Origin: Candidatus Poribacteria bacterium
GTDB lineage: Bacteria; Poribacteria; WGA-4E; WGA-3G
Reading direction: 5' to 3'
Assembly: GCA_964291315.2 (NCBI GenBank)
Contig: OZ219753.1
Coordinates: 1,856,001 to 1,920,000, forward strand
DNA length: 64,000 bases
The stretch's first letter is position 1. Every line of letters begins with the position of its first letter. A model generated the notes under the pieces. The model did no database searches and had not been told where the DNA came from. It worked only from the letters and a program-made list of their open reading frames with translations. Shown here piece by piece: positions 5,144 to 21,408 of the stretch. The position numbers were made by a program, and so were the translations under genes.

Positions 5144-6280
5144 ATGCCCAATCCCCACACACTCCTCTGTACAATTGGAACAAGTCTGTTTTATCCCAAC
5201 CTGTCCAATCTTCTTAAGGAAGAGCAAACCGATCCCCGCCGCGCTGCTCTCGCCCGGGCATATTCCCAAAAAGATTGGCAGGCAGTAGCATTACAACTGC
5301 ATGAAGTAGATCCAACCAACCGTCTTTGTGGTGCAGAGATTAACTCTGTGACGGATCTCATCGAACATAACCATATTGAGATAGGCTATCTTCATCTGTT
5401 CCACTCTGATACAGACACCGGAAAATCGATCGCCGAAATTTTGAAAACCTACTTCACACAAGATCATTGGCGGGTGAAAGTTCATTGTGTAGAAGGCTTG
5501 CAAGATGATGACCCTAAGCTGTTTCGCACGCAGGGTTTGCGCAACCTTGTCAAACTCTTCGGCGAACAGGTACGTGAGTCAAGACAAAACTCTATTCCCT
5601 GTGCTATTAATGCAACCGGCGGATATAAAGCTCAGATTGCAATTGCAGTACTTATGGGGCAATCTCTTGACATCCCAGTCTATTACAAGCATGAACGTTT
5701 TAATGCGATTATCCCGTTTCCACCTATGCCTGTAGCTCTCGATGTTTCACTGTGGCAGCGTGCCAGCGGTATGTTTATGCTCCTGAGTCAGACTGACGCT
5801 TGTGAACCCGAAAAAAATTTCAGTGAGGACTGGGATGTGCGTTTTGAACCTTTAGTTGAGCGGGTGGTGATTGATGATGAGCCACATCTGTCACTCTCAG
5901 CCACTGGACAGATTTTTCATGAAACCTCCCACTCTCATTTTCAGGAATTGAAGACGAACAATCTTCCGCGGGCTGCATATCAGCATGAGAAAGAGCAACC
6001 GAGGCTCGGAGAACACGGCTACAACCAAGCCCTTAATCCCATCTTACATTTTTTGCAAACCCTCACCGACGCAAAAGACTACGTCCGATACTGTCATTCA
6101 ACGCGTTGGTATCCGAACCTGCCGGAAGCCACCCGATTTCGGTTATCACGTGGAGCTGTCGAAGGAGTATACTCAAACGGGACGTGGTGTGTGAAATTTA
6201 GGGTCATCACAACCGCAGAAGATGAAAGCCAATTAGCAGTCGTTGTGGCAGATCTCAATGACTGGTTGCACACACAATAA
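5144..6280 (+). CDS. CRISPR-associated CARF protein (APE2256-like) with wHTH and putative RelE/DUF2103-like C-terminal domain
   Basis: N-terminal LLCTIGTSL, GAEINS, HSDTDTG, INATGGYKAQ, VYYKHERF typical of the APE2256 CARF family; first gene of the cas operon. Confidence 0.85.
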   Translation: MPNPHTLLCTIGTSLFYPNLSNLLKEEQTDPRRAALARAYSQKDWQAVALQLHEVDPTNRLCGAEINSVTDLIEHNHIEIGYLHLFHSDTDTGKSIAEILKTYFTQDHWRVKVHCVEGLQDDDPKLFRTQGLRNLVKLFGEQVRESRQNSIPCAINATGGYKAQIAIAVLMGQSLDIPVYYKHERFNAIIPFPPMPVALDVSLWQRASGMFMLLSQTDACEPEKNFSEDWDVRFEPLVERVVIDDEPHLSLSATGQIFHETSHSHFQELKTNNLPRAAYQHEKEQPRLGEHGYNQALNPILHFLQTLTDAKDYVRYCHSTRWYPNLPEATRFRLSRGAVEGVYSNGTWCVKFRVITTAEDESQLAVVVADLNDWLHTQ

Positions 6281-6313
6281 TTTCAAGGCACACAAAAAGG
6301 AGGTCTTTAGATC

Positions 6314-7921
6314 ATGGCTGATGAATCTTTTGTAATTATAATCGATACCCCCTCAGTAAAAAAATATGTGTTCGGTAGCGATTCTTTGAGTGAAGTACGG
6401 GGCGGCAGCGCGCGACTAGATCGCTTAAACCGGCACGAAATGGAAAGCTGTTTAACGAAGCACCCTGACGTAGCAAACGTAGAACGGGTTTATGCCAATG
6501 GGGGTTCAGCACAGTTTTTGGTCCAGGCAGACAATGCTGCCAAGGTTAAAGCTGCCTGTGAAAGCATGCTGTACCAGATCCGCGCGCAAACAGGCGGGGA
6601 AGTGCGACTTGTCTACGGTATTGCCCCGCTTAAAGATGCGGGGGCCTACCCGGAGACTGTGCGCACCGCACATTTTCAACTTCGATGCCAACGCGAGTTT
6701 GCAACATGCCATCGGAGCGCTGCCTTAGCGCCTATTATATCGGAATGTACCTCTTCTTCGCACCTGCCCGCAGTTCACATAGATGATGACCAGATACTGT
6801 CCCAGGCAAGCTATGAAAAAGTGCATGAGCGACAGGGAACGCCGCATCACGGGCTCTGGCGTGGATGGATGCACCATTTAAATCACAAAGGAAATTGGCC
6901 AGAAAGCAAGCATTGGAATAAACTACGATGTGAGAACCTAACGGATATCGGCGATCGATCCTCATGGCGCAACTACATCGGGATAGTCTATGCCGATGGA
7001 AACGCCATGGGACAAATTGTCCAAGCCATGACATGCCCGGAGACATTTCGCCAATTTAGCAAAATTGTCGATAACAGTATTCAAGACGCATGTTTCACTG
7101 CACTTAGCGAAATTTCCGAGCGGGAAGTTAATAAAATTCGAAAAGATTATAAACAACAGAAGGGTTTTGACCCCCTCGCTGCTGATATCCTACTCCTTGG
7201 CGGCGACGACTTGCTAGTGGCACTGCCAGCCGACCGGGCACTCGATTTTTCCCTGAGAGTCACCGAAAAATTTGAAGCCTTGACAAAAAATAAAATTGAT
7301 GCCCTACAAAATGCAGAAACGCAGCAGTTTTTCCACGAGAAGCTCGGCGACCGAGGCTTCACAATTTCCTGCGGGGTTGCCATTGCAAAAAGCAGCTATC
7401 CGTTTTATCTCGCCCTAGACCTGGCAGAGCAGCTCTTGAAAAATGCCAAACGCCAAAATAGCCGTACTTCGCAAACCGAAACACAAAACAAGGCACGCGT
7501 TGACTTTCATGTCGTAGCAGGAGCAAATAGCCACACCCTTGGACAAGTGCGTGAGACGGACTATCAAGTATCGACTGATTCCACTGCGCAGCGAACGCTT
7601 CGCCCCTTGTCTTGTCCTGAATTGAAGACGCTCCGGACCGGTGTCGAGCGCCTGCAAGAGGCGAGATTTCCACATAGCAAGCTCTATGAGCTTCAAGAGG
7701 CAGCTCTGTTACCGAGCAAGATTCAATCTGACTGGCGCATTAAAGATATATTCGCTCGATGCCAGCATGGAAAAGGCCAATCGCAGCGACGCGCCTTATG
7801 GGAAGCCACAAGACATTTGTGCCCACAAGAATACAACTTTAACTTCCCGTGGTTCGAAAAAGACGGGCAACGCCTGCTGTGTGTAGCAGACCTCGTAGAA
7901 GCATACCGCCTATTTGCTTAG
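6314..7921 (+). CDS. cas10: Type III CRISPR Cas10 (compact, no HD domain)
   Basis: Palm1 DTPSVKKYVF...EVRGGS, YANGGS; Palm2 IVYADGNAMG and LLLGGDDLL; ISCGVAIA, AEQLLKNAK. Confidence 0.92.
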   Translation: MADESFVIIIDTPSVKKYVFGSDSLSEVRGGSARLDRLNRHEMESCLTKHPDVANVERVYANGGSAQFLVQADNAAKVKAACESMLYQIRAQTGGEVRLVYGIAPLKDAGAYPETVRTAHFQLRCQREFATCHRSAALAPIISECTSSSHLPAVHIDDDQILSQASYEKVHERQGTPHHGLWRGWMHHLNHKGNWPESKHWNKLRCENLTDIGDRSSWRNYIGIVYADGNAMGQIVQAMTCPETFRQFSKIVDNSIQDACFTALSEISEREVNKIRKDYKQQKGFDPLAADILLLGGDDLLVALPADRALDFSLRVTEKFEALTKNKIDALQNAETQQFFHEKLGDRGFTISCGVAIAKSSYPFYLALDLAEQLLKNAKRQNSRTSQTETQNKARVDFHVVAGANSHTLGQVRETDYQVSTDSTAQRTLRPLSCPELKTLRTGVERLQEARFPHSKLYELQEAALLPSKIQSDWRIKDIFARCQHGKGQSQRRALWEATRHLCPQEYNFNFPWFEKDGQRLLCVADLVEAYRLFA

Positions 7922-7939
7922 TAGAAAGGAGACTTATCT

Positions 7940-8683
7940 ATGAATCCTCAACGCTTAGACCTAGACTACCATATTATTTGGCAGGGACGTTGGCACGTCG
8001 GTAGCGGATATCAATCCGCAGCAGCAGATAGGTTACTCCGGCGCTTGGAAGGTGTTGACGGTGGCCCGTTTGTTCCCGGCTCTCAAATCAAGGGCGTTCT
8101 ACGTTACCAGTGCGAAAGATTAGCACTCGCGTTCGGGCTCGAAGCAGTCAACCCCCACGCCGGTATTAAAGAAGACAATCAGAATCTAATAAGACATTTT
8201 AAGCCGTTGAAGGAAACAACCTTGGTAGTAGATCGACTATTTGGCACCCGTTATCAAGGCGAATGTCTCTTTGTTACGAACGCAGTGCCTATGTTATTAC
8301 CCGAGGAGAAAACAGTTCCCTCCGTACAACCGCGTACAGCCTTGGACCGCCTTACAGGAACAGTAATGGAACACAATCTGTTCACAACCGAATTTTCGGA
8401 TCAGAAAACCTCGCTTCAAGGAACTATCCGCGCCCGTCATCCCGCCGGCGTTCTGACACCTTATGAAGAAGGGGTTCCTTATGAATATGCGCTCCTCCTA
8501 GTATCACTCCTTTCCATGGATACCTTGGGCGGAGACAAAAGCACCGGCTTAGGACGTTGCAGCCTTGAAATCGTAGAGGACTCCTTGCGTTGGAACTGCC
8601 AAGATATTTCATTGGATGCCGGTCTGCAAAGTTTCGAGGATTTAGCAGACGAATGGGCTGAGTGGTTAGAGGCAACACGTTAA
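7940..8683 (+). CDS. cas7: Cas7-group RAMP (Csm3-like)
   Basis: WHVGSG, PFVPGSQIKGVLR, LFG, RTALDR, G-loop LGGDKSTGLGR. Confidence 0.9.
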   Translation: MNPQRLDLDYHIIWQGRWHVGSGYQSAAADRLLRRLEGVDGGPFVPGSQIKGVLRYQCERLALAFGLEAVNPHAGIKEDNQNLIRHFKPLKETTLVVDRLFGTRYQGECLFVTNAVPMLLPEEKTVPSVQPRTALDRLTGTVMEHNLFTTEFSDQKTSLQGTIRARHPAGVLTPYEEGVPYEYALLLVSLLSMDTLGGDKSTGLGRCSLEIVEDSLRWNCQDISLDAGLQSFEDLADEWAEWLEATR

Positions 8684-8708
8684 TAACTGTAAATAAGGAT
8701 CGAACAGC

Positions 8709-9965
8709 ATGAAAACAATACCCATAACAGCAAAATTACTTTCACCCCTAGCACTTAGACGCGACCGCCAATCTGATCGCTCGCGGAGTGACCGATCTGT
8801 GACCGGCACAGCAGTCCGGGGCGCCTTGGCCGCTCTCTATTTGCAACACCACGGGCAAACAGATCATACCTTTAACCATCTGTTTCTAAATGAGGCTGCA
8901 TGCCGCTTTGGCCCACTGGATCCCGGACCTAAGCACTTCCCACTAACCACCGCCGCCTGCAAGCGCGAAGGACTAAAACACGCCCTTGTAGACCAATTGT
9001 GGTACCGTATCGCTCAACACTATACCGGAGGCCTTGTGGAAGAAAGCGCAGAATCCACATGGCGGCAATGCCAATACAAGCAGTGCGGAGCAGATTTGAA
9101 AGCACACGACGGCTTTTGGCAGAAACACAGCGATAATAGCTTGCACGAAATGAACGAAGACCGACAACACGTCGCCACCCACGTCGGCATCGATCGACAT
9201 ACTGCTACCACCGCCGAATCTATGTTCTACACCCTTGAAGCTATGCTGGCTTCTGGTAAAAAGAAAGACCTATACGGATGGTGTTCTGTAGACGAAGATG
9301 CCCTCAACGCCCTGAAAAAACTCTTGGAAACCGAGAAATACCGCATATCAGTCGGACACCATCGCACGCGCGGCTATGGAGATATACGTATACAATTGCA
9401 CAAAGCTGTTGAAGAGATGGACCAACAGACTTGTGTGGAAAATTGGGAACGTTGGAGTCAGGAACTAGCGGCGTTTCTGAATTCACCCCCACTCTCTGTT
9501 CGGGACATTAATACTGAACATTTCTATTTTTCGCTCTCCTTTCCCAACGGGGCTATATTCGTGGATAAATTTTTGCGCTACAGTCTGGATCCCGCTACCA
9601 TGCTTTCATGGCTACCCCCTATGCCTTCTGTAGATCAAGCTTTCCCTATAGAGAGCCGGCCTCCCTATAAACTCTCATCGGGAGGCACAATACAGTGGAT
9701 AACTGCGGTAACTAAACACGAACGACTCCGCGGCTGGAACGCAGCCCACGGCCTGCCCCGTCAAGATGAATGGAACGTCGCACGAGGCTCTATCTACGTC
9801 TACTCTTTTCAGGGCACTACGGCACAACGGGAAGCACTTATCCAACATCTCAGCAATTTGTGCAAAGCGGGGGTTGGATTACGACGCAATGAGGGATTCG
9901 GCACAGTCGTCATTTCCGATGAGTTCCATTACCAGTTTCGCAAACAACAAGAGGTCCAATCGTGA
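8709..9965 (+). CDS. csx10: Csx10 / Cas5-group RAMP with two RRM G-loops
   Basis: LLSPL, GTAVRGALA, HVGIDR, VGHHRTRGYG, GWN...LPR, GVGLRRNEGFG. Confidence 0.85.
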   Translation: MKTIPITAKLLSPLALRRDRQSDRSRSDRSVTGTAVRGALAALYLQHHGQTDHTFNHLFLNEAACRFGPLDPGPKHFPLTTAACKREGLKHALVDQLWYRIAQHYTGGLVEESAESTWRQCQYKQCGADLKAHDGFWQKHSDNSLHEMNEDRQHVATHVGIDRHTATTAESMFYTLEAMLASGKKKDLYGWCSVDEDALNALKKLLETEKYRISVGHHRTRGYGDIRIQLHKAVEEMDQQTCVENWERWSQELAAFLNSPPLSVRDINTEHFYFSLSFPNGAIFVDKFLRYSLDPATMLSWLPPMPSVDQAFPIESRPPYKLSSGGTIQWITAVTKHERLRGWNAAHGLPRQDEWNVARGSIYVYSFQGTTAQREALIQHLSNLCKAGVGLRRNEGFGTVVISDEFHYQFRKQQEVQS

Positions 9966-10402
9966 TTGTTTTGAATAACGAGTTAATCCAAAAAACCGAT
10001 TGCTATATTGACGAGCATCACGAAACTTTTTCCAAATTAGGTGAATCTTTCTTTGCTACATTCGGCTATGACCCACGAAACAATCGCATTAGCTCACAAG
10101 TTCGTAACCTTCAACAAATTGTCTGCTCTGCTACGCGTTTTGCGGACATTGAGGATTTTGTAAAAAACCAGATAGGAAAAGAAAGAAAGAACGCTCCAGA
10201 CAAAACAGAGTGGAGAGCATTAGGAGAGCAGGTTCTGAAGCAATTGAGGCAGCTGCGCGCCAAAAGTAAGGAATTGGACAGCGATCCCAATAATCAAATC
10301 GCTTTGCGCTTGCGTCTCGCTCGCGGCTGGGTGCGCGCTGTCGTCAGCTCCTACCTCTATCAGACAGCATTGGAACAAATGGAGCATAGAGGTGTACTAT
10401 GA
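9962..10402 (+). CDS. cas11: Cas11/Csm2-like small subunit (copy 1)
   Basis: Small helical protein after csx10; SQVRNL...FVKNQIGK...W...YLY pattern of III-D small subunits. Confidence 0.7.
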   Translation: MIVLNNELIQKTDCYIDEHHETFSKLGESFFATFGYDPRNNRISSQVRNLQQIVCSATRFADIEDFVKNQIGKERKNAPDKTEWRALGEQVLKQLRQLRAKSKELDSDPNNQIALRLRLARGWVRAVVSSYLYQTALEQMEHRGVL

Positions 10403-10920
10403 ATTATGTTGACCTACTGTCCGATACAATCTATTGTGAACAGGCTGTTAAACAATTAAATAAAATACTAGGGAATGCTAGCATATTTCCTGTGGCATAT
10501 TCACAGATTTACGGGCTGCGCCAAATCGCCAGACAACAGCCCCACAAGGTCCTGCCATTTGCCCAACATCAAAACGAGCGCGCCGAAAAGTTAAACAAGG
10601 CAGCCGAGGTCGACTTTTGGTCTCTGGTGGCAGAACTTTGTAAACCCTACAACCCTTCAGATGCTAACTGGTCTGTTTGTAGAGAAGGCACTAATTATCT
10701 GCCAGAAGGCATACGAGAACAAGATATTCCTCCAAAACGGAAAGGCATGCAGCAAAAAGAGCAAAGTGAGCGCAATCAACTCAGGAAAAAACAAAAAGAA
10801 TGGCTCAAGCAATGGGAAAAAGAACATATTCCAGCGTTTTTTGAACGTTTCTGTACAGAGTGTTTGTATCGGAAAACTATGATCGAAACAGCAGAGCTAA
10901 AAACAGAACACAATGGGTAA
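10399..10920 (+). CDS. Second small helical protein, probable divergent Cas11 paralogue
   Basis: 4-bp overlap (ATGA) with the previous gene; SQIYGLRQI...FAQHQ.ER...FW...CLY echoes the Cas11 pattern. Confidence 0.55.
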   Translation: MNYVDLLSDTIYCEQAVKQLNKILGNASIFPVAYSQIYGLRQIARQQPHKVLPFAQHQNERAEKLNKAAEVDFWSLVAELCKPYNPSDANWSVCREGTNYLPEGIREQDIPPKRKGMQQKEQSERNQLRKKQKEWLKQWEKEHIPAFFERFCTECLYRKTMIETAELKTEHNG

Positions 10921-11000
10921 AACGAAGCTATAGACAGCTGAGAAATGTAAATACGTTTGCATGCAAGACAGGTAAAATCGATAAAAGGAGTAATAATAAT

Positions 11001-11828
11001 ATGCTTCAATTAAAGCAGAAGATCCGCCTTACTGCTTGCTTAGGGTTCGACACCGCCTGGCGCATCGGTTCCGGCAAAGAGGGTGAAACTATGAGCGATT
11101 TGGGAGTAGTCCTTGATCCTAATGGCAGTCCGGTTCTGCCCGGTTCTTCACTCAAGGGAAAATTACGGAGCACTTGCGAAACGTTATCACATGCCCTCCA
11201 TCTGCAAGCCTGCATGTTAAATGAAGACGCAAGCGGGGTCCGCTGTGCCAGTGATGTGAATTATTATCACCGTGTGCGTGGTAATTATCAGAAAACCTAT
11301 CAGGAAGGGGTAAAAAGCCGCCTGCAATGGATTGACGACAACACCTGCGATGTTTGCAAACTCTTCGGTTCGCCAGTACAAGCCGGACGCTTGGCGGTAA
11401 GTGATGGCGAACTACAGGATTGGGCATCCCTTGTGCAGGTACGCGACGGCATTGTCATTGATCGTGATAGTCAAACAGCCGTCGATGGTCTCAAATACGA
11501 CTATGAAGTTATTCCATCAAGCAGCCGATTCCAGCTCTGTATTGACATTGAAAACCCAACTGATTCCGACCAGGCTCTACTCGGTGCTGCTCTGTTTGAT
11601 TGGCACGCCGGCAGCAGTATCGGCGGGTTTACAAGCCGAGGCCTCGGACGCTTCCATCTCAAAGATATCAAAATATTCAATGTCGACATGACAGACGCAC
11701 AGCAAAGAATCAAATTCTTAACGAAAAAAACAACCGAGGAACGTTTCAATCTCTTAGAAAATTGGGAATCTTATTTCACTCAATACATAGATAAGACGTG
11801 TCGGGTTCTAGAGAATGAGGAGGGTTAA
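11001..11828 (+). CDS. cas7: Cas7-group RAMP (Csx7/Csm3-like)
   Basis: WRIGSG, PVLPGSSLKGKLRS, CDVCKLFGS, VRDGIVIDR, IGGFTSRGLGR; ATG 11001 after AAGGAG. Confidence 0.92.
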   Translation: MLQLKQKIRLTACLGFDTAWRIGSGKEGETMSDLGVVLDPNGSPVLPGSSLKGKLRSTCETLSHALHLQACMLNEDASGVRCASDVNYYHRVRGNYQKTYQEGVKSRLQWIDDNTCDVCKLFGSPVQAGRLAVSDGELQDWASLVQVRDGIVIDRDSQTAVDGLKYDYEVIPSSSRFQLCIDIENPTDSDQALLGAALFDWHAGSSIGGFTSRGLGRFHLKDIKIFNVDMTDAQQRIKFLTKKTTEERFNLLENWESYFTQYIDKTCRVLENEEG

Positions 11829-11830
11829 CT

Positions 11831-12808
11831 GTGTTACGAAAATGGTTCTGTCAAGCGGATATAAAAATTATCATTGAACCGGTCGACCCTATACTGATTA
11901 AGAGTGGTTATGCTACTATAGACGGGACGGACATGGTGCCTGTATCAACGTTCAAAGACGGCGATCGCGTCTACTACTTTCCCGGGAGCTCACTCAAAGG
12001 CGTACTGCGCAGCCATCTAGAACGTATCGCTCGCACCCTGCATTCAGGCAGCGTCTGCATCCCTTACTATGACCCTAAGAAAAATATGACAATACCCGCC
12101 GCTGCAGAAGAGACCTCCCACGGCTGTGGATATCGCTCACGCAGCCCTCGGAGCAAGAAGACCTCTGCTACTGCGTACGCCGATTCGTGTGCTACATGCC
12201 GCCTGTTCGGCTCCTTGAAATTTGGCGGACGTTTCAGTATAAGTGATGCCTACCCTTTGTTAGAGCATAAGCCTTCTATTGAATCACGCAACGGAGTAAC
12301 AATAGACCGTTTTACAGGCGGAACTGTACCGGGAGCTCTGTTCGACCTGCAAGTACTTGTAGGCGGACAATTCGCCGCGAACCTCCGTTTGATTAACTTT
12401 GAATCCTGGCAACTTGCAGCGCTTAACCTGTTGTTATTAGATATGGCAGATGAAATGATTACCATCGGCTCCGGACGCAGTAGAGGACTTGGCCGCGTAC
12501 GAATCACCGTTCCTTCGTATTGTCTTTCCTACGTTCGAAATGTTAATAAACTTGTTGGGCTATACCACCTTGTCACCCCCCAGGAGCAAAATGCTTACAG
12601 CTTATACAATTGGACACCTGAAGACGATATCGCCCTACAAAGCCCGCATATACGCGGTCTGCGGCATCAGTACGATCTCAGTGACAATTGGGGTACACTG
12701 CTACAACCGCTCTTACCCGCCTTTGAAAAATTTCTGCAGTGGCACGGGGGCCCTCGCGGGCAAGCACCCCACACCGAGGCTGCCAATAAGAAGGAAATCA
12801 ACCCATGA
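11831..12808 (+). CDS. cas7: Cas7-group RAMP (Csm3-like)
   Basis: PILIKSG, FPGSSLKGVLRS, CATCRLFGS, RNGVTIDRFTGG, IGSGRSRGLGR. Confidence 0.92.
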   Translation: MLRKWFCQADIKIIIEPVDPILIKSGYATIDGTDMVPVSTFKDGDRVYYFPGSSLKGVLRSHLERIARTLHSGSVCIPYYDPKKNMTIPAAAEETSHGCGYRSRSPRSKKTSATAYADSCATCRLFGSLKFGGRFSISDAYPLLEHKPSIESRNGVTIDRFTGGTVPGALFDLQVLVGGQFAANLRLINFESWQLAALNLLLLDMADEMITIGSGRSRGLGRVRITVPSYCLSYVRNVNKLVGLYHLVTPQEQNAYSLYNWTPEDDIALQSPHIRGLRHQYDLSDNWGTLLQPLLPAFEKFLQWHGGPRGQAPHTEAANKKEINP

Positions 12809-13407
12809 CAGATTTTTTGAAAACCGCAGATCTAACACAGAATGTGTTTCTGAAGCTTATTGAAAACCTTCCACTCGATGCCCAAGTATCTACAGGTTAC
12901 ATCTGGCTAGAAGCCGCTGATGGATGGACACTGGACCGCTGGAATTGGGAAATCGGTATTGAAACGGAGATACGTTGGTACCGAGCACGACATGAGCCGG
13001 TAGAAAAATCCGCTAAAGACTGTCTGGCGAAATCCACCGCCGGTCGACTCTTTGCCATGGAGGGCGAGCTACGCTGGCGCACCATCCCCGCACTCGGAGA
13101 AGCATGCTGGCGCACAGTCTTCCTCGGAAATGTTGATTGGGCGGGGCCAACCTTGGAAAATCATTCCCAAGCTTTGAATAATTTGCGTTCACATCAGAAA
13201 AGCTTTTACTTATGGGGACAACAGACACAAGAGACACCCGATGAATGGATTGAACTGCGGATCCCACACCGTTTTCAGTATCCTATTGCAGGCAACCCGC
13301 ATAGAGTCAAAATCCTCACCGAACAATGGGACGATGCCACCGGCGAACCGCACTTCGTCCGACTCTGTACTCTTAAACCCGCAGAGGAGACAACATCATG
13401 CCAATAG
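12805..13407 (+). CDS. csx19: Csx19 (type III-D subunit)
   Basis: GRLFAMEGELRWR, YLWG, E.RIP..FQYP, terminal FVRLC; canonical position before the last RAMP. Confidence 0.8.
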   Translation: MTDFLKTADLTQNVFLKLIENLPLDAQVSTGYIWLEAADGWTLDRWNWEIGIETEIRWYRARHEPVEKSAKDCLAKSTAGRLFAMEGELRWRTIPALGEACWRTVFLGNVDWAGPTLENHSQALNNLRSHQKSFYLWGQQTQETPDEWIELRIPHRFQYPIAGNPHRVKILTEQWDDATGEPHFVRLCTLKPAEETTSCQ

Positions 13408-14477
13408 GAGAAAACTTCTGGAACCCATACCGCTGGGTCACCCTCAGTAATCGCCCCAGCACACACGATACGCCACACTATCATCATACCTTTAGCGCTC
13501 TTTCGGGGCAACTGTGGTGTGAGCTTGAGGCACTAACGCCTTTACTGATTGGGGACCGACGAGTACCCATCCAATTTGTCCGCCACGCTCACAATGGGCA
13601 ACCCTATATTCCAGGTACCTCACTTAAGGGGGCCATACGCTCTTTGGTCGAAGTCCTAGGAAATGGAACCACGCCCCCTGCTAATCATCAGCCGGGCGCT
13701 ACTAATCGTCAGCTGGACACTGCAAGCCGAACTTTCGGCTACTCGGACCGCAGTGACATCTTTACAGGATTGATCCGATTCAGCGATGCGGAAATCTCCG
13801 AGCCAATTACGCCTATGGACATGAGGCAATGGCAGGAGTGGACTGTAGTTGTCGGGGCACCAAAACGCACACACACCGCTTTTTATCCACAAGGCCGAAA
13901 GCACAAGTTTTACCACCATCACCCTGGCGCGATACAACTCGTTCCTCCACATCCGGGTGTTACTCAAACCACTATAGTCAGACCTGCCCCACCCAGGACA
14001 TCTTTCCATTTCACAGTGGACTTTACAAATCTACGCGAAGAAGAACTGAATGTCTTACTCTACAGCCTTGCCCTTGAAGAACAAGTTACTGTCCGGCTAA
14101 GTCCAGAAGCACTCGGTCGAAAGGAAGACAATGAAGGCGAGGAATTCTGCGGGCCCCTCCGCCATAAAATAGGCGGCGCCAAACCACACGGGGCCGGCTC
14201 CGTTCACATTCGGATAACCAAAATGCAATTGTGTCGGGACGCAGCAGCCCGTTACCGAGGCAATACGGCTACCGACATCTTGGAAAAAACAAGCCTCACC
14301 AACGAGATATACGAACGCACTGCAAGCTTTCAAAACCGCACAGACACAACAATGAGAGAACTACGGGCTATGTTGATTTATTCTACCGATGATCCCAGAA
14401 CACCTATTCATTATCCGACGTATAGATGGTTTAATACACAACAAGGCGCACAAACACAATTAAAACCGACCCTCTAA
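13398..14477 (+). CDS. cas7: III-D terminal Cas7-family RAMP (TIGR03986-like, short)
   Basis: FWNPYRWV, LEALTPLLIG, IPGTSLKGAIRS, KFYHH, FTNL...EL, HKIGGAKPHGAGSV. Confidence 0.85.
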   Translation: MPIGENFWNPYRWVTLSNRPSTHDTPHYHHTFSALSGQLWCELEALTPLLIGDRRVPIQFVRHAHNGQPYIPGTSLKGAIRSLVEVLGNGTTPPANHQPGATNRQLDTASRTFGYSDRSDIFTGLIRFSDAEISEPITPMDMRQWQEWTVVVGAPKRTHTAFYPQGRKHKFYHHHPGAIQLVPPHPGVTQTTIVRPAPPRTSFHFTVDFTNLREEELNVLLYSLALEEQVTVRLSPEALGRKEDNEGEEFCGPLRHKIGGAKPHGAGSVHIRITKMQLCRDAAARYRGNTATDILEKTSLTNEIYERTASFQNRTDTTMRELRAMLIYSTDDPRTPIHYPTYRWFNTQQGAQTQLKPTL

Positions 14478-14494
14478 CTAAATACGAACTTACC

Positions 14495-15454
14495 ATGATA
14501 TGCCAAAACTTTCGATTCGCACGCTACCGCTTCACATATACCGTCCAAGAACCCTTGAAAATGCCACAATACAAAGGCAATATCTTCCGCAGCCGATTCG
14601 GATACCTCCTGCGCGAAATCACATGCATCGGCGGTAAAGAACACTGTGTGAACCGTTGTCAGTTTCCAGAACGGTGTGTATATTCCAAATGCTTTGAAAC
14701 GCCAGTCCCAGAGGACAGCCCTATCCTCCGGGGGCAACCCTATGCACCACATCCGTTTATACTCGAACCACCGCTCACACCGAAATTAGACTATAGCCCC
14801 GGCGACATCTTCTCCTGCACGCTGACCCTCGTCGGTAACGCAATTAACCTGTTGGCTTGGCTGGTTTTCGCCTTCCGAGAGATAGGCAAACGACGGATCG
14901 GCATCCGCGGTAAACGCGGGCAATGCAAACTTAACAAAGTCGAAGCACTCCCCGCAAAAGATAACCAAAGCCACCGAACAATTTACACAGCAGAAACCGA
15001 GCTACTCACAGACAACGGGCTAGTGCTCCGACACAACGACGTGATACACCAGATACCTAATTCTGTTAATCAGATTCACCTAGAATTCCTTACGCCCGCG
15101 AGTATCAAAGTCAACGGGAAATGGACCAAAGAACTGACGTTCGAACATCTCATCCGCAATTTGCTCCGACGCATCCGGTTCTTGAGCTACTTTCACTGCG
15201 ACGAGGATTTGAATGTAGACGCTCGCGCGCTCATCGAGAAAGCCTGTCCCGTCATACACGAGTCTAATTTCCGTTGGATCCGAGCTGACCGATACTCCTA
15301 CCGCGCAGGGAGTTCTATACCCATGGGCGGGTTTACCGGTAAAATCCGATTTTCAGGCGAATTAGAACCCTTTCTGCCTTTTATCTATTTGGGGAAGTAT
15401 TTACACATCGGGCATCACACAGCTTTTGGACACGGGCAGTACGTCATTCGGTAA
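14495..15454 (+). CDS. cas6: CRISPR pre-crRNA endoribonuclease Cas6
   Basis: Cys cluster then APHPFILEP, LEFLTP, MGGFTG, C-terminal G-loop HIGHHTAFGHG. Confidence 0.9.
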   Translation: MICQNFRFARYRFTYTVQEPLKMPQYKGNIFRSRFGYLLREITCIGGKEHCVNRCQFPERCVYSKCFETPVPEDSPILRGQPYAPHPFILEPPLTPKLDYSPGDIFSCTLTLVGNAINLLAWLVFAFREIGKRRIGIRGKRGQCKLNKVEALPAKDNQSHRTIYTAETELLTDNGLVLRHNDVIHQIPNSVNQIHLEFLTPASIKVNGKWTKELTFEHLIRNLLRRIRFLSYFHCDEDLNVDARALIEKACPVIHESNFRWIRADRYSYRAGSSIPMGGFTGKIRFSGELEPFLPFIYLGKYLHIGHHTAFGHGQYVIR

Positions 15455-15688
15455 TTGCTAGTAAATCTAAAAAATTAATAAAGCAAGTTTGAAAAAACTT
15501 GGAGTTTAAGGGGACTGAGGCCCTCGTAGCCTTGGAGATATGGCCCCCACGTTCAAATTATAAAAGCCGTGAAATATCTATCAAACTCACGTTATAATAT
15601 ACCTACATCTTTGCGTTTTGTATCACCTAAAAAACGCACAATTTTATTACCAACCTAACCCTTGATTTTCCATAAATGAGGTCCCAGC

Positions 15689-18653
15689 ATGTCAAGAAAA
15701 AAACGCACCGCTAAGCCAAAAGAGGTCCGAGACTACCGACACGACACCGTTACCCGAAAAAATAATCCGCCCGCAGGCATCGCCGCACAAGGGAAGCTCC
15801 AAGAGCCCCCGAAACGGCAATACGCATACAACCCACACCTGCCACCCAACCTCCGAGCCGACCCAGACGCAGACGCAGATAAACTTCCCGAACTCCTCCA
15901 CACCGCACAACAGCGACCACTCTCCGCAGATGAGGCGAAGACGCTCGCCGAGGCACTCCGACACCACGCTCCCTGGCTTGAATGGGCAGGCAAGCAGGAG
16001 AACGCAACAACCTTCAGCGTCGACCCCGTGGCACTCCACATCCATGAGCGCGTCAGCAGCAAAGCGATCCTGAAAACCGCAAAGCGCCAAAACGTCCAAC
16101 GTGAACTCTTCGCCGATCCGCAGCAGGATTATAGCACAGCCGTTGACTTTTACCAGCACGATGTAGATTGGGCGAATCGCCTCATTCTTGGGGATAGTCT
16201 CACAGTGATGAGTTCCCTTGCACAACGTGAAAATCTCGGTGGCAAGGTGCAGATGATCTACATAGACCCGCCGTATGGTATCAAGTTTGCCTCTAACTTT
16301 CAACCGAGTACTTTTCAGCGGGACGTAAGAGAGCGTCCGCAGGACTTGACGCGTGAGCGTGAGCAGATCAAGGCGTATCGGGATACGTGGCGTTTGGGTA
16401 TCCACTCATATCTTGCGTATCTGCGGGATCGGTTGATTGTTGCGAAGGAATTGTTGACAGATAGCGGCAGTATTTTTGTGCAGATGGGGGATGAGAATGT
16501 CCATCGCGTCCGCTGTGTCATGGATGAGGTGTTCGGGAGTGAGAATTTTGTTTCTCAGATCACGTATAAAGTGACTAGCGGTTTTGAACGAAAGTTAGGG
16601 CCGCGCAGAATTCAAGCCCACATTATGTGGTATGCTAAAAAAAAGGAATCGTGTAAATTTCGAAGAATATTTAAGCCTAAAGATGTTGATGGTTTGAATC
16701 TTGATTTATATAGGTACGTTGAACAAGATGGTAATGTTAGAACATTGACGCGCGATGAACGCACAAATCCTGAACAAATTCCTGATGATGCCAGAGTCTT
16801 TAGATCCCTGCCACTCCACACTATGGGAACAGCGAAAAGAGAACCACGGGTGTTTGAAGGAGAGGTATATACGCCTCCGCCTAATACACAGTGGCGACAC
16901 ACAACAGCTGCGTTCGACGTTATGGTAAAATGCAATCGTATTATAAAAGAGGGGAATCGGATCAGGTCCAAATTTTACTTGGGAGATCTCGGTGCCGAAG
17001 AATATAATAATGTTTGGCTTGATACTGGGCCAGAACTCGCTAAATTCTATGTGGCTCAGACTTCATCCAAGGTCATTCAACGCTGTCTCTTAATGACCAC
17101 AGACCCAGGCGATTTGGTCCTTGATCCGACTTGTGGAAGTGGCACAACCGCCTATGTTGCCGAGCAGTGGGGCAGACGTTGGATTACGATTGATACGAGT
17201 CGAGTTGCTGTTACTTTGGCACGTCAACGCCTTTTAACAGGAAGCTTTAATTACTATAGACTCAAGGATGGACCTAAAAATATCACAGGCGGTTTTATAA
17301 ACAAAATCGTTCCACGAGTCACTCTCAAAGATATTGGGCAAAACACTGCCCTGGATCCGATATTTGCCAAGCATGAGCCGATATTGAAAGAGAAGTTGGA
17401 TGCTCTGAACAACAACTTATCACAGATTACCCCCCCCGCTTCGCATAAAACTCCTCGCAAAACTCACCGATAAGCAGAAAAAACACGGCAAAACTGCCAT
17501 CACAGACGCAGATAAACGCCGCTGGCAGCTACCAGATACACATTGGAACGACTGGCAAGTACCCTTCGATACAGACCCCGACTGGCCAAAACCACTACAA
17601 CACGCTCTCGTAGACTACCGCAAAGCGTGGAAAGCAAAGATGAACGATGTCAACGCATGCATCGCCGCAGCCGCCGAAACCGAAGAACTCGTCGATCAGC
17701 CACACATCAACAGAAAGCGAGTGCGTGTCACCGGACCCTTCACCGTAGAGGCAGTGCAACCCGCAGAAGAGTCTCTTCACCTTGATTCACCCATCGCAGC
17801 ACAACCCGAAGAAGTCGATACTACTTTTGATGCCGAGACCGACACGCACGAACCGATCAATGCCGAGGCATACCTCGAACAGATGATACATCACCTCCGA
17901 CACGACGGCGTCCGATTCCCTAATAACAACACATTGACATTCGACACCCTCGACCCCATCGAAGCCGATATCCTCCACGCAGAAGGCACTTGGAAACACT
18001 GCGATACTGAATCCTCCGTCGCCGTCGCATTTGGACCACAGCACGGCCCCATCACCGCAATGCAAGTCGAGGCGTGTCTACCCATCGCCTCCCGCCGCGG
18101 TTATGATGAACTCGTCTTCGCAGGGTTCAGTTTTGACGGCGCGGCACAAGCAGTTATCCAAGACGATCCGAACCCCAGGGTCCGTATCCATATGGCACAC
18201 ATCAACCCGGATGTCGCAATGGGCGGACTCCTCAAGCAGACACCCTCAACCCAGCTCTTTACCGTCTTCGGAATGCCCCGCACAACCCTTGAGGAAGCCG
18301 GCGAAGAGGAATATATTATCAAAATGGAAGGCGTGGACATCTACGACCCGTCAGACAACACCGTGCGCTCTGCGGGTGCGGATAAGGTGGCGGCGTGGTT
18401 TGTGGATACCGACTACGATGGGCGCACGTTCTGCATCACGCAAGCCTTCTTCCCGGACAAGACAGCATGGCAGAAGATCGCCCGTGCCTTGAAAGGCGTT
18501 ATTGATGAAGAGCAGTTTGAGCGGTTCAGTGGCACAACATCGTTTCCGTTCCGTTTTGGACCGCATAAACAGGTCGCAGTCAAAGTCATCGACCCGCGCG
18601 GAAATGAGGTGATGAGCCTGCATAGTTTGGCAGACCCAAGGTATTCCGTATAG
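15689..18653 (+). pseudogene. Type III Mod-like (beta-class) N6-adenine DNA methyltransferase, split by a +1 frameshift near the C8 tract at 17430-17437 (ORFs 15689-17473 and 17640-18653)
   Basis: NRLILGDSL, QMIYIDPPYG, VLDPTCGSGTT; removing one C gives a continuous 987-aa frame (ITPPLRIKLLAK...WQVPFDTDPDWP...RKAWKAKMNDV) ending AVKVIDPRGNE. Confidence 0.85.
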
Positions 18654-18819
18654 GCAGAGTGAACACAGAAGTATCTATCAAACCCACGCCAAATTAATGG
18701 AAAGAAAATAGAGTGCTGTTTCAAACCTACGATTTTCGGACGAAGGTGTTCACGAATTATTGAAATCTGTGTCACCCGGGATTCAGACAATATTTAGGGC
18801 AACTCTTAACTCGCGCTCC

Positions 18820-19023
18820 CTATTGACCTACCATTTTGCGCAGATTCTCAAGCCAATTCTGTATATCAGACTCTTCCACAATACCGAGCCAGAAGAGAAC
18901 CGCAACAATAACGACAACCAAAATTAAGAAACGCCATGTGTGCTTGATAATACCAATTATAAGAAATACAACGCCTATCCCCGCAATTATTAAAAAGAGT
19001 AGAGAGTTAGCTAATTCAGGCAT
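18820..19023 (-). CDS. Small membrane protein (2 TM)
   Basis: 67 aa with two hydrophobic helices; AAGGA RBS; TTGACT...TATACT-like promoter on the minus strand near 19140-19167. Confidence 0.65.
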   Translation of the reverse strand: MPELANSLLFLIIAGIGVVFLIIGIIKHTWRFLILVVVIVAVLFWLGIVEESDIQNWLENLRKMVGQ

Positions 19024-19225
19024 AATTGATTCGGATCCTTGGCGCACACCTTACGACACGCCGGCTTACTCTTCTATGAGGACTAGCGCTACTGTAGGGT
19101 AACAGAAATAGATGAAAGCCCTCAATGATATGCTATCGTAGTATACTAAATACGTAAAAAAAGTCAAGAAAGAGATTTTCACAATAACATTTCCCTTGTT
19201 ATCCTTTGGTTCCTTTGTAAAAAAC

Positions 19226-19254
19226 TTGACATTTCTTCACGTTTCGCGTATAAT
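19226..19254 (+). promoter_or_regulatory. Perfect-consensus sigma-70 promoter for the CRISPR array
   Basis: TTGACA (19226-19231), 17 bp, TATAAT (19249-19254). Confidence 0.85.
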
Positions 19255-19256
19255 TA

Positions 19257-19530
19257 CTTTCTACAACCTTTCCCGCTCGAAGGGAATCGAAACTACATTT
19301 AAGTTCTAAATTGTGTGAGTTGCGTGATATCTGGGTCATCGACTTTCCATAACCTTTCCCGCTCGAAGGGAATCGAAACAAGTAAAGTCAAATATTATGA
19401 ACGGCTCTCTGGATGTCTTTCCATAACCTTTCCCACTCGAAGGGAATCGAAACAATAAAAATAAAAAATATCCGCCAAGGCATGAAACACAAAATTTCCA
19501 CAGCCTTTCCCGCTCGAAGGGAATTAAAAT
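19257..19530 (+). CRISPR. CRISPR mini-array: 4 repeats (37 bp) and 3 spacers (49, 37, 40 bp)
   Basis: Repeat CTTTCCATAACCTTTCCCGCTCGAAGGGAATCGAAAC at 19257, 19343, 19417 and a degenerate terminal copy at 19494; TTCCC/GGGAA hairpin, GAAAC 3' end. Confidence 0.95.
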
Positions 19531-19899
19531 TAACAGGCAGCAATCAGTAAGCGGCAAAAGAGATGTGAGCCCCATACCCGCTTCTGATAGCTAACCTACT
19601 GACACCTTCCGTTTAATCAGAGCAGTCAATACGCACCCCTGAACCCCTCTTGACTCTCTTACCTTTGGCAGCCTGTCTGACATCTTCCACACTTCCGATA
19701 CATCCGAAAATTTAAATTAAAACAGATGACAAATAAATTCGTCTTAAGTAAAATAAATGAGGAATATTGAGTTCTTGTGTAGGTAGAACCTCCAAATTGT
19801 GCAAATAAAACGCAATTTGTCTCAGGCTCTTATTTCCTGACTACCGACCCTTAACCCATAACAACCGAAAACCGATGTTGAAAACAGGGAGATTTTACC

Positions 19900-21408
19900 A
19901 TGCAAACAAACCCACATTTAAGCAAGCACAGCAAACTGACCGACGCACAGATGCAGGATTTTATTGTAAATGGCTATCTTATAGTAAAAACCGATCTGCC
20001 GCGTAGTTTCCATGAAACCATCTATCGCAAAACACAAGAATACACGGAAAAAGAAGGAAATTTAGGCAACAATATCTTGCCACGCGTCCCCGAATTACAA
20101 GCTGTTTTCGAGGAACCCGCTGTCCGTGGCGCATTCGCTAGTATTCTAGGCGAGAATTACGCAATGCACTCACATCGACACCCACATCGCAACAACCCAC
20201 ACAGCAGCGGACAAGGATTCCATAAAGATAGCTATTGGGGATATCAGAAGGTGAGACACCACTGCCCACGATGGGCAATGGCGTTCTACTACCCGCAAGA
20301 CTCGCCCCTCGAAATCGGACCCTCGGCAGTCTTACCGGGCACACAGTACTACAACACGCGGATCACTAAAGATAACGACGGAGAACTGGGAATCAGCGGC
20401 GAAGCCGGGACAATAATCATTATTCATTTTGATCTCTGGCACCGCGCAATGGCGAACCAGACCGACAAAACCCGCTATATGATGAAATTTCAGTTCATTC
20501 GGATGGACGCACCACAAGCACCCGAATGGAACGTAATGGATCCACACTGGAAGCTAGAAGGCACGAATACGGCAACGCCCGCGCATCAAGGAACATGGCG
20601 GCACGTCTGGAATTGGATGGCAGGAAAACCCAACGCCGGTTCTGCACATCCAGCTAACGGACACCTGACCAAACACATCACAGCCCTGAACGATAATAAC
20701 GCGGATGTCCGCTCCCACGCCGCTGACGAATTGGGTATCTGCGGTGAAACCGCTGCAGAATCGATTCCACACCTCATCCACACACTCTCTGATGTTTATG
20801 AACCCGTCCGCCTGAATGCCGCGTACGCACTCGGGGCAATCGGCGCACCAGCTGTCCCCGCACTGATTGAGACACTCAAGGTTGAAGACCAAATCGTGCG
20901 ACGAATGGCCGCATACGCATTAGCAGCAGTTGGCGCGCCAGCTGTCCCCGCATTGAGTGAACATTTACAACACACCGAGGCTGCCGTTCGCGTCGAGGCC
21001 ACTTATGCTTTAGCACAAATAGGCAGCGCAGCCGAGCCTGCTGTTCCAACATTGATCGAGGGCATGAAAGATGAAGTCGTTGAAGTTCGCCGCTATATCG
21101 CGGAAGCTTTTGGCAGTCTCGGACCAGCAGCAGCACCTGCTGTCCCTGTCCTATGCGATATACTAGCTAGTGATGATGACGGACAAGCCCGCTTCGAAGC
21201 CGCATTAGCATTAGCACAGATCGGACCCGCGGCAAGCGACGCTGTGCCAATCCTAACTCGCGCTCTGACCGACGAAAACCGTTATGTCCGAGATAACGCC
21301 GTCCTTGCACTCAAACGGATTGATACACCAGAAGCCGAGGCCGCCCTGTTTGATTACCTACTCCTAGCTCGATGGTGTCCGATCACAAATCGAGAAAGCA
21401 CATTCTAA
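19900..21408 (+). CDS. PhyH-like Fe(II)/2OG dioxygenase fused to HEAT (PBS-lyase) repeats
   Basis: FIVNGYL, FHKDS, VLPGT, DLWHRA, R.MMKF; C-terminal repeats VR..AAYAL..IG..AVPAL. Confidence 0.88.
   Translation: MQTNPHLSKHSKLTDAQMQDFIVNGYLIVKTDLPRSFHETIYRKTQEYTEKEGNLGNNILPRVPELQAVFEEPAVRGAFASILGENYAMHSHRHPHRNNPHSSGQGFHKDSYWGYQKVRHHCPRWAMAFYYPQDSPLEIGPSAVLPGTQYYNTRITKDNDGELGISGEAGTIIIIHFDLWHRAMANQTDKTRYMMKFQFIRMDAPQAPEWNVMDPHWKLEGTNTATPAHQGTWRHVWNWMAGKPNAGSAHPANGHLTKHITALNDNNADVRSHAADELGICGETAAESIPHLIHTLSDVYEPVRLNAAYALGAIGAPAVPALIETLKVEDQIVRRMAAYALAAVGAPAVPALSEHLQHTEAAVRVEATYALAQIGSAAEPAVPTLIEGMKDEVVEVRRYIAEAFGSLGPAAAPAVPVLCDILASDDDGQARFEAALALAQIGPAASDAVPILTRALTDENRYVRDNAVLALKRIDTPEAEAALFDYLLLARWCPITNRESTF

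Follow-up and report, generated by a model that had tools for sequence, protein, structure and literature searches.

A type III-D CRISPR array of Candidatus Poribacteria with a consensus promoter against its first repeat: the probable remnant of an ordinary array

In a Candidatus Poribacteria genome, downstream of a type III-D operon (5144-15454), lies a CRISPR array of 4 repeats and 3 spacers in which a perfect consensus promoter stops just short of the first repeat, leaving no room for a leader. This arrangement raises the question of whether the locus is a distinct kind of element, hard-wired for a purpose of its own, or an ordinary array that has been shortened. Our comparisons suggest the latter, and we consider it probable that the array is the remnant of an ordinary III-D array from which a deletion of about 240 bp removed the leader, and that it is decayed and no longer self-adapting but still expressed. 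This reading is the likeliest because the repeat hairpins are kept, the tags of repeats 1 to 3 (R1-R3) are kept and the effector genes are full length. Positions are those of the window, by which we mean the whole stretch of 64,000 nucleotides that was analysed.

The array and its promoter

The array and the promoter in front of it consist of the following features.

19219-19254, plus strand: retained leader promoter, with an A-tract at 19219-19224, a -35 element TTGACA at 19226-19231, a 17-nt spacer and a -10 element TATAAT at 19249-19254
19255-19257, plus strand: putative deletion junction, at the place where relatives carry, from TATAATTA up to repeat 1, a conserved leader of about 240 nt
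19260-19263, plus strand: predicted transcription start, at repeat 1 positions 4-7
19257-19293, plus strand: repeat 1 (R1), 37 nt, with 2 substitutions in its 5' part and an intact hairpin and ATCGAAAC tag
19294-19342, plus strand: spacer 1, 49 nt, which appears to be replaced in the strain of sequencing run X3
19343-19379, plus strand: repeat 2 (R2), 37 nt
19380-19416, plus strand: spacer 2, 37 nt, for which no match was found
19417-19453, plus strand: repeat 3 (R3), 37 nt, with a single substitution in the hairpin loop
19454-19493, plus strand: spacer 3, 40 nt, of which nt 16-37 are partly antisense to the mRNAs of FGE-sulfatase-domain paralogs
19494-19530, plus strand: repeat 4 (R4), the degenerate terminal repeat, 37 nt, with 5' changes and the tag ATTAAAAT instead of ATCGAAAC

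The initial annotation had ended TTGACA-17-TATAAT at 19254 and begun repeat 1 at 19257, and both coordinates are exact, so that 2 nt (TA) separate the -10 element from the array. It had also spoken of a promoter inside the first repeat, which is right for the start site, predicted at about 19260-19263 from the usual 6-9 nt between a -10 element and the start, but not for the promoter itself, which ends 2 nt upstream. With its at least three repeats in the range of 23-50 nt and its unique spacers of similar length the locus is a CRISPR array, and its repeat, with a ...GAAAC tag after a short hairpin, belongs to the family of the III-D relatives. The ...GAAAC at the 3' end, the degeneracy of the last repeat and the place of the promoter settle its orientation. 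What it does not have is a leader of 100-500 bp between promoter and repeat, with integration signals at repeat 1.

As the initial annotation had noticed, R1 departs from the internal repeats near its 5' end and keeps both hairpin and tag; the differences between R1 and R2 are confined to repeat positions 6 and 8 (CTTTCTACAACC versus CTTTCCATAACC). The 5-bp UUCCC/GGGAA hairpin is kept by 4 of 4 repeats, and it is weak (-6.5 kcal/mol, no better than shuffles), while the 8-nt tag is kept in R1-R3. These 4 repeats are the only copies of the III-D repeat in the 4.40-Mb genome. An Rfam scan of 18600-20000 at E<=1 returned no family.

The description of the promoter as perfect holds, since its -35 and -10 hexamers together score 12 of 12 against the consensus in a promoter scan. 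Sites of the form TTGACA-N16-18-TATAAT occur 123 times in the genome where about 2.2 are expected from composition (an excess of about 56-fold), which indicates that consensus sites are a real, selected class in this genome. Four of these 123 perfect promoters sit 13-59 nt before tRNA genes, and from the count of 123 the chance of finding one in the right orientation whose end is at most 30 nt ahead of a given position is about 4e-4, so that the arrangement exceeds chance. Because this class of promoter is enriched, is used and is placed close to processed stable RNAs, the array promoter is, judged from its sequence, likely to be active.

The leader of related arrays and its absence here

In arrays of the same repeat family across the genus, a conserved leader of about 240 nt stands between the promoter and repeat 1, the leader promoter having the form AAAAAATTTGACATTTTT-N-TATACT/TATAAT. 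Of the 64 other genus genomes, 22 have the pattern of promoter, 230-260 nt and repeat core, with 29 instances in all; the match that this search returned in our own window is spurious, as it runs from the promoter to repeat 4. In 26 of 41 loci, the array beside the Cas6 homologue has the same core, TTCCCGCTCGAAGGGAAT. In 16 of 33 Cas6-adjacent arrays a strict promoter lies 246-260 nt before the repeat core, and no shorter distance was seen, the remaining 17 having no strict match, for example because the locus end cuts them or because their hexamers are degenerate. Among 65 genomes the present one alone was found to have a promoter 0-30 nt from the repeat core, and a partly truncated leader was seen in one instance (G009). 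The initial annotation had proposed a search for further promoter-fused copies of the repeat: none was found in these 65 genomes, the repeat occurring in the present genome only at this array and the fusion in the present genome alone, but the abutment of promoter and repeat as such turns out to be common in the type I-B arrays of the genus.

The promoter itself appears to be inherited from this arrangement. It is identical at 28 of 31 positions to the leader promoter of G074:C129, with the non-consensus spacer included, and among the genome's 88 perfect promoters with 17-nt spacing its spacer ranks first in likeness to the leader promoters of relatives (14 of 17 positions at best, where the next-best promoter in the genome reaches 12 of 17). 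At the level of sequence, the window promoter is thus shown to be orthologous to the leader promoter of the relatives. In alignment A1 the window matches through GTATAATTA, is then interrupted by a gap of 239 columns and resumes at the first base of repeat 1. Taken with the leader architecture of the relatives, this gap indicates a clean deletion of the leader body, and we read the leaderless state from these alignments as derived and specific to this lineage, not as the mark of a distinct kind of element.

The leaders of relatives also indicate what would have gone with the deletion. The 29 leaders are 76% identical on average, and RNAalifold predicts within them a long-range helix of 9 bp, in which CAAACGCGA near the 5' end pairs with TCGCGTTTG, some 170 nt further downstream. 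Four of the 9 pairs show changes on both sides with pairing kept, for example to CAAACGAGA/TCTCGTTTG in three arrays, and a third copy of the 3' arm lies in the middle of the leader. On this model these features could represent an RNA structure or, alternatively, three protein sites. It is likely that the structured leader RNA of the relatives is a regulatory handle, one that is gone from the array in the window. Integrases normally use the repeat-proximal bases of a leader, which the array in the window has lost too.

The cas operon, its surroundings and the order of decay

The array stands between an effector operon and a syntenic border, with the following features around it.

5144-15454, plus strand: type III-D cas operon of 11 genes, from Pfam/NCBIfam matches
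5144-6280, plus strand: CARF protein gene
6314-7921, plus strand: short Cas10 with GGDD, which is seen in the translation
7940-8683, plus strand: RAMP
8709-9965, plus strand: Csx10
9962-10920, plus strand: two small ORFs
10860-12808, plus strand: two Csx7
12805-13407, plus strand: Csx19
13398-14477, plus strand: TIGR03986 RAMP
14495-15454, plus strand: Cas6, the last gene of the operon
15585-18665, plus strand: multi-copy unit of 3.1 kb inserted in the interval between cas6 and the array, with approximate boundaries
15689-17473, plus strand: N6/N4 DNA methyltransferase (PF01555), part of the inserted unit
17640-18653, plus strand: 337-aa ORF, part of the inserted unit
18820-19047, minus strand: conserved 75-aa ORF, the syntenic neighbour of cas6 in relatives, with matches in many genus genomes
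19718-19783, plus strand: conserved promoter-like element ATGACA-17-TAAAAT of the HEAT/PhyH gene, the downstream border of synteny
19900-21408, plus strand: syntenic gene with HEAT/PhyH domains

Genes for Cas6, Cas10 and Csx10/Csx19 are thus near the array, with the end of the operon 3.8 kb upstream of it. Each of the 11 genes has a counterpart in the orthologous operon of G016/L073 with which it can be aligned along most or the whole of its length, at 60-76% identity, and the effector therefore looks intact; the CARF gene aligns over its last 84 residues only, as the G016/L073 locus ends there. The 75-aa ORF has a promoter-like site of its own at 19167-19140 on the minus strand. The element at 19718-19783 was considered as a repeated RNA gene and rejected, being single-copy here and preceding the HEAT/PhyH gene in relatives.

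In the 64-kb window no cas1 or cas2 was found, and the array accordingly has no adaptation module beside it. The nearest pair (C4:1948425-1949767) belongs to a type I-B locus about 73 kb downstream, in agreement with the original description of a small array (3 spacers) with neither a transcribed leader nor cas1/2 nearby. Cas1 together with Cas2 occurs at two other loci only, of type I-B (34 repeats) and type I-D (64 repeats), both of which are complete adaptation modules, and a cas1 fragment lies elsewhere in the genome. At 4.4 Mb the genome is at the lower end of the range for the genus (4.3-6.7 Mb).

Relatives illustrate what such a site may have held before. In G032 it consists of the III-D genes, cas6, the small ORF, a decarboxylase, two ORFs, Cas1, a reverse transcriptase, the leader, an array of 41 repeats and the HEAT/PhyH gene; these syntenic reverse transcriptase and Cas1 adaptation genes are absent from the window. 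The loci with the most similar Cas6 (L070 at 82%, L071 at 78% and L073 at 76%) also lack the adaptation genes and have very small arrays, of 5, 6 and 2 repeats, with the full leader present. Between the window and these three loci the small ORF has 60-77% amino-acid identity, and the HEAT gene is 82-85% identical to that of relatives. L070 and L071 have their cas6 in common with the window, but the identity of their effector genes is no more than 24-41%, a sign that the module upstream of cas6 was swapped. The methylase unit, which L070, L071 and L073 lack in the interval from cas6 to the small ORF, is present in 6 copies in the genome, about 90-93% identical and with a variable middle, and its depth in sequencing runs X1-X3 is 10-25x higher. 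The likely order of events is that the adaptation genes were lost and the array shrank, and that in this lineage alone the methylase unit was then inserted and the leader deleted.

Measured against the III-D arrays of the genus (G032/L031, G076/L070, G077/L071 and G016/L073), the array in the window has the same repeat family, the same leader promoter and the same chromosomal site, from the pair of cas6 and the small ORF to the HEAT/PhyH gene, and the smallness of its closest relatives, which are also without adjacent cas1, is shared as well. It differs in that the leader of about 240 nt, kept by all of them, is deleted, and in that its tag is ATCGAAAC where nearly all III-D relatives in the genus have ATTGAAAC.

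What the array may still do

If the array is a decayed but expressed remnant, a single deletion, from 2 nt past the -10 element to the first base of repeat 1, would have removed the whole transcribed leader and thereby fused the array directly to the conserved leader promoter with its consensus sequence. RNA polymerase would then start at about repeat positions 4-7, and the III-D Cas6 (14495-15454) would cut out three crRNAs, which is still possible because the truncated first repeat retains the hairpin and the cleavage site. These crRNAs would load a complex of Csx10, Csx7 and Cas10, and on meeting a matching transcript the GGDD Cas10 would make cyclic oligoadenylate for the CARF protein (5144-6280). 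With the structured leader RNA of the relatives gone, expression would probably be constitutive. Through its own system the array presumably cannot add spacers, as it has lost both the leader sequences adjoining repeat 1 and its cognate integrase. The methylase insertion, the small genome and the cas1 fragment elsewhere fit a general decay, and the locus could be on its way to loss.

Spacers might nonetheless be gained in trans, through the Cas1-Cas2 of the I-B or I-D system in the same genome, in which case the array would be leaderless without being frozen. In favour of this, the genome has complete adaptation modules of both types, the tag ATCGAAAC is common to its III-D and I-B repeats, and in the genus spacer acquisition by I-B arrays proceeds with only 21-22 nt between promoter and repeat 1. 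Evidence from strains also bears on it. The X3 strain is about 97% identical to the window in the flanks, and its contig, covering 19115-19372, crosses the promoter-repeat junction with no insertion reported. Its alignment with the window spans 258 nt and contains 28 mismatches as well as 10 gap positions; every one of the 7 gapped bases listed is located between 19298 and 19327, in spacer 1, a region that looks unrelated in this strain. The X3 strain has kept the fusion and, from these alignment differences, probably carries a different spacer 1, which weakens the word frozen that the initial annotation had used for the cassette. A contig of run X4 (19423-19673) has 7 differences and keeps spacer 3 and R4. 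The difference in spacer 1 may reflect acquisition in trans or, equally, differential loss of spacers from a longer ancestor, as recombination between repeats would explain it with no acquisition at all. Acquisition is disfavoured for the time since the substitutions of R1 arose, because these two private changes were not copied into R2 or R3, which speaks against a duplication of R1 since then; furthermore, the sequence upstream of R1 is unlike the conserved end of the I-B leader. We regard gain in trans as unlikely.

The array might instead be a dead relic, unused, in which the junction of promoter and repeat is an accidental by-product of decay that awaits loss. The loss of the adaptation genes and the leader, the reduction to only 3 spacers, the multi-copy unit inserted between cas6 and the array, the small size of the genome for its genus and the failure to find protospacers would all be expected of such a relic. 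The state of what remains argues against it: the deletion stops exactly short of both the promoter and the first repeat, the promoter matches the consensus perfectly where that of a relative with 1 spacer (G016) has a degraded -10 element (TAACAT), hairpin and tag are kept in R1-R3 with the terminal repeat alone being degenerate, 11 of 11 effector genes are open and align with those of G016 over most or all of their length, and the fusion persists in the X3 strain. On balance a dead relic appears to be an unlikely reading.

Searches for what the spacers recognize were largely negative. None of spacers 1-3 has a near-full match in the host genome, and for spacers 1 and 2 the host matches are at chance level, their best scores being reached by 27 of 300 and 139 of 300 shuffles, respectively. 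The whole array has no match among phage records and only chance matches among plasmid records (E>=0.8), and when a 1201-nt query of the array region was compared with 61 relatives no match was confined to a spacer. Spacer 3 was absent at up to 3 mismatches from the 64 other genus genomes and, as an exact match, from IMG/VR viral contigs, and no copy of repeat plus tag was found in JGI metagenome contigs. There is thus no convincing target for any spacer in the host genome or in phage and plasmid records, nor for spacer 3 in the genus genomes and viral contigs, and since no protospacer was found for any of the spacers, current immune use cannot be shown.

The exception at a lower level is spacer 3, of which nt 16-37 match seven copies of one element over 19-22 nt with 1 mismatch; over the whole spacer, six copies agree with it at 24-25 of 40 positions and the seventh at 22 of 40. 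The best host score of 36.2 bits is reached by 1 of 300 spacer 3 shuffles. The element is a family of proteins of about 626 aa with a C-terminal FGE-sulfatase domain (PF03781, E 5.5e-64). In the single copy that was annotated, at C4:2155131, the gene lies on the opposite strand, so that a spacer 3 crRNA would be antisense to its mRNA, an outcome with a 50% prior.

This match counts in favour of the proposal, made by the initial annotation, that the array is a hard-wired guide cassette, in which removal of the leader serves the constitutive production of a few fixed crRNAs that steer III-D to transcripts of the host or of resident elements, in regulation, addiction or conflict between elements. 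A strong retained promoter and an intact effector would suit such a cassette, as would an antisense match to a paralog family of 7 copies at a level that shuffles seldom reach, and when spacer 3 is translated from its reverse complement, the resulting peptide is similar to the motif that the protein has where the match lies. Type III systems, however, need tag-proximal pairing for Cas10 activation, and the 15 tag-proximal nt of spacer 3 are unpaired with the FGE-family target, with which no more than 24-25 of its 40 positions match. For spacers 1 and 2 there is nothing beyond chance-level host matches, spacer 1 appears to differ between strains, which means that the guides are not fixed, and relatives carry unrelated spacers at the same site. 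The suggestion in the initial annotation that the guides point at fixed or host transcripts is therefore not borne out, as no spacer has a near-full host match and the partial antisense match of 19-22 nt in spacer 3 stands by itself; judged by its sequence, this match is possibly a trace of the spacer's origin rather than a working target. We consider a hard-wired cassette improbable.

A more specific form of this idea would be that the leader deletion was selected, in that it stripped off a possibly regulatory leader RNA and left a constitutive three-guide cassette whose spacer 3 crRNA tunes FGE-sulfatase-domain mRNAs through about 22 nt of pairing. We think this quite improbable as well. Were it true, the pairing of spacer 3 would suffice for binding or local cleavage by the III-D backbone without Cas10 signalling, and an uncultured sponge symbiont would have domesticated CRISPR guides for the tuning of host genes. 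Finally, repeat-rich regions are prone to assembly error, but the notion that a leader was collapsed or lost in assembly is scarcely credible, given that contigs from X1 (18654-19493) and X2 (18791-19293), which may stem from the source sample, cross the junction with 0 differences and that the contig from X3, a different strain, crosses it with no insertion reported.

The decayed remnant that we favour can be set beside several known systems. CreTA-type crRNA-like regulators, in which a guide partly complementary to a nearby host promoter or toxin gene exerts a repression that safeguards the cas genes, have very few spacers and no adjacent adaptation genes, as does the array studied here. The analogy to CreTA and to conflict between elements, raised by the initial annotation, finds nothing pointing to it, as no spacer has a match in the window beyond itself, and hence none at a nearby promoter or toxin, the single partial match above chance, that of spacer 3, being to distant paralogs, and the array occupies the syntenic chromosomal position of ordinary III-D arrays, with the inserted multi-copy unit not containing it. 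Virus-borne mini-CRISPR arrays (PMC6858448) share the very few spacers and the lack of adjacent adaptation genes, but the window array stands at an ancestral chromosomal site beside its own effector operon and has spacers of normal length. In searches of an open-access collection of papers, no title pointed to a type III array with a deleted leader, and no paper on a leaderless CRISPR mini-array was returned.

In type II-C arrays of Neisseria and Campylobacter, every repeat carries a -10 element, and the 5' ends of crRNAs are made by initiation. The present array resembles these in that its predicted start lies inside repeat sequence and needs no leader transcript. It differs in that between 19200 and 19560 on the plus strand the external promoter at 19226-19254 is the only promoter-like site, and its 5' ends would be made by Cas6.

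Another comparison is CRISPR2 of Synechocystis sp. PCC 6803, a type III-Dv array which (bioRxiv 10.1101/2023.12.07.570523) has a strong dedicated promoter, is processed by Cas6 and has a transcribed leader of 125 nt that is bound by the helicase CrhR, linking expression to redox state. In contrast to CRISPR2 as described there, the array in the window has no transcribed leader and so no such handle. Together with its relatives it amounts to a natural experiment, in which the same array family occurs with a full leader (29 instances), a partly truncated one (G009) or none (this genome). Should crRNAs still be made here, expression and processing can do without the 240-nt leader, which must then be conserved for the sake of adaptation or regulation; the main value of the locus is that it tests, in nature, what purpose a CRISPR leader transcript serves. 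It may also illustrate how type III systems decay in a shrinking symbiont genome, with the adaptation genes going first and then the leader, while promoter, repeats and effector stay.

The nearest likeness in layout is within the genus itself. In its I-B arrays, TTGACA-18-TATAAT lies 21-22 nt before repeat 1 in 25 instances from 22 of the 64 other genomes, and also in this genome, so that contact between a consensus promoter and repeat 1 is the usual state of I-B arrays in this phylum and being leaderless is, alone, no sign of a non-immune function. Both these arrays, including the genome's own at C4:1950189-1952430, and the III-D array have a consensus promoter that almost abuts repeat 1 and, within this genome, the same ATCGAAAC tag. 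A near-leaderless transcript, with a transcribed leader of about 15 nt, is a conserved native design for I-B, whereas the III-D array has come to a similar layout by deletion; the I-B arrays coexist with cas4-cas1-cas2 and are long (34 repeats here), and the III-D fusion is a one-off with a gap of 2 nt and no integrase. By inspection, the 5' end of the III-D repeat (CTTTCCATAACC) resembles the end of the I-B leader (CTTCCATAAAGC), a likeness from which we draw no claim.

Leaders, promoters and repeat tags of the III-D and I-B arrays

In relatives of the same genus, the III-D leader of ~240 nt is 76% conserved, as judged from an alignment (A2) of the leaders of loci L040-L069. The alignment also yields a predicted long-range helix of 9 bp in which 4 pairs show compensatory changes, and one arm of this helix recurs as a third copy in the middle of the leader. 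From these sequence features, the leader may be either a structured RNA with a regulatory role or a threefold protein site. One array in another genome of the genus (L063, G009:C124:36003-36282) has a leader that is ~85 nt shorter, with the loss at the repeat-proximal end; partial leader deletions thus occur in the genus too.

At the type I-B arrays, a TTGACA-18-TATAAT promoter is conserved and ends 21-22 nt upstream of repeat 1, both in the source genome, G000, and in 22 of the 64 other genomes (25 instances). The source-genome example, alongside those at I-B loci L112-L121, is:

G000:C4:1950137-1950202 (outside the window), I-B promoter-to-repeat-1 region

By the position of this promoter, the transcribed I-B leader in the genus would be only ~15 nt long. 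A decayed duplicate of the I-B promoter and first-repeat unit lies ~130 nt upstream of the working unit, at G000:C4:~1949975-1950060, also outside the window.

The repeat tag of the III-D array in the window (19286-19293) is ATCGAAAC, the same as the I-B tag of G000, and ATTGAAAC is the tag of nearly all III-D arrays in relatives. The I-B tags are split across the genus, with ATCGAAAC present in 6 and ATTGAAAC in 4 of the 10 I-B arrays examined (L112-L121).

Gene exchange and insertion around cas6, and a probable remnant of an adaptation module elsewhere

The most similar Cas6 proteins (78-82%) are encoded at loci L070 and L071, which also carry the most similar small ORF and HEAT gene, but their effector genes are only 24-41% identical to those of the window (5144-15454). 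This pattern of identities indicates that the type III effector module has been swapped upstream of cas6. Elsewhere in the source genome, outside the window, a fragment of Cas1 with an internal TGA stop (G000:C4:724731-724986) is probably left over from an adaptation module that has been lost.

A further unit is inserted in the interval that separates cas6 from the array:

15585-18665, 3.1-kb unit encoding an N6/N4 DNA methyltransferase and an unknown 337-aa ORF

This unit is present in 6 copies genome-wide with ~90-93% identity and a variable middle (16550-17050), and it is 10-25x over-represented in sequencing runs X1-X3.

Spacer 3 and promoters genome-wide

Over 19-22 nt, spacer 3 (19454-19493) matches, in antisense orientation, a multi-copy family of proteins with an FGE-sulfatase domain, and the peptide translated from the spacer's reverse complement resembles the motif of these proteins at the matched site. 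The matched copies are:

G000:C1:561169-561190
G000:C4:2155131
further copies

Across the whole of G000, 123 perfect TTGACA-N16-18-TATAAT promoters were observed against ~2.2 expected; many are preceded by an A-tract, and four have tRNA genes 13-59 nt downstream. One promoter-like element stands before the HEAT/PhyH gene:

19718-19783, ATGACA-17-TAAAAT element, 82-100% identical in many genomes of the genus

It occurs in 2-3 copies in some of the genus genomes and as a single copy in G000.
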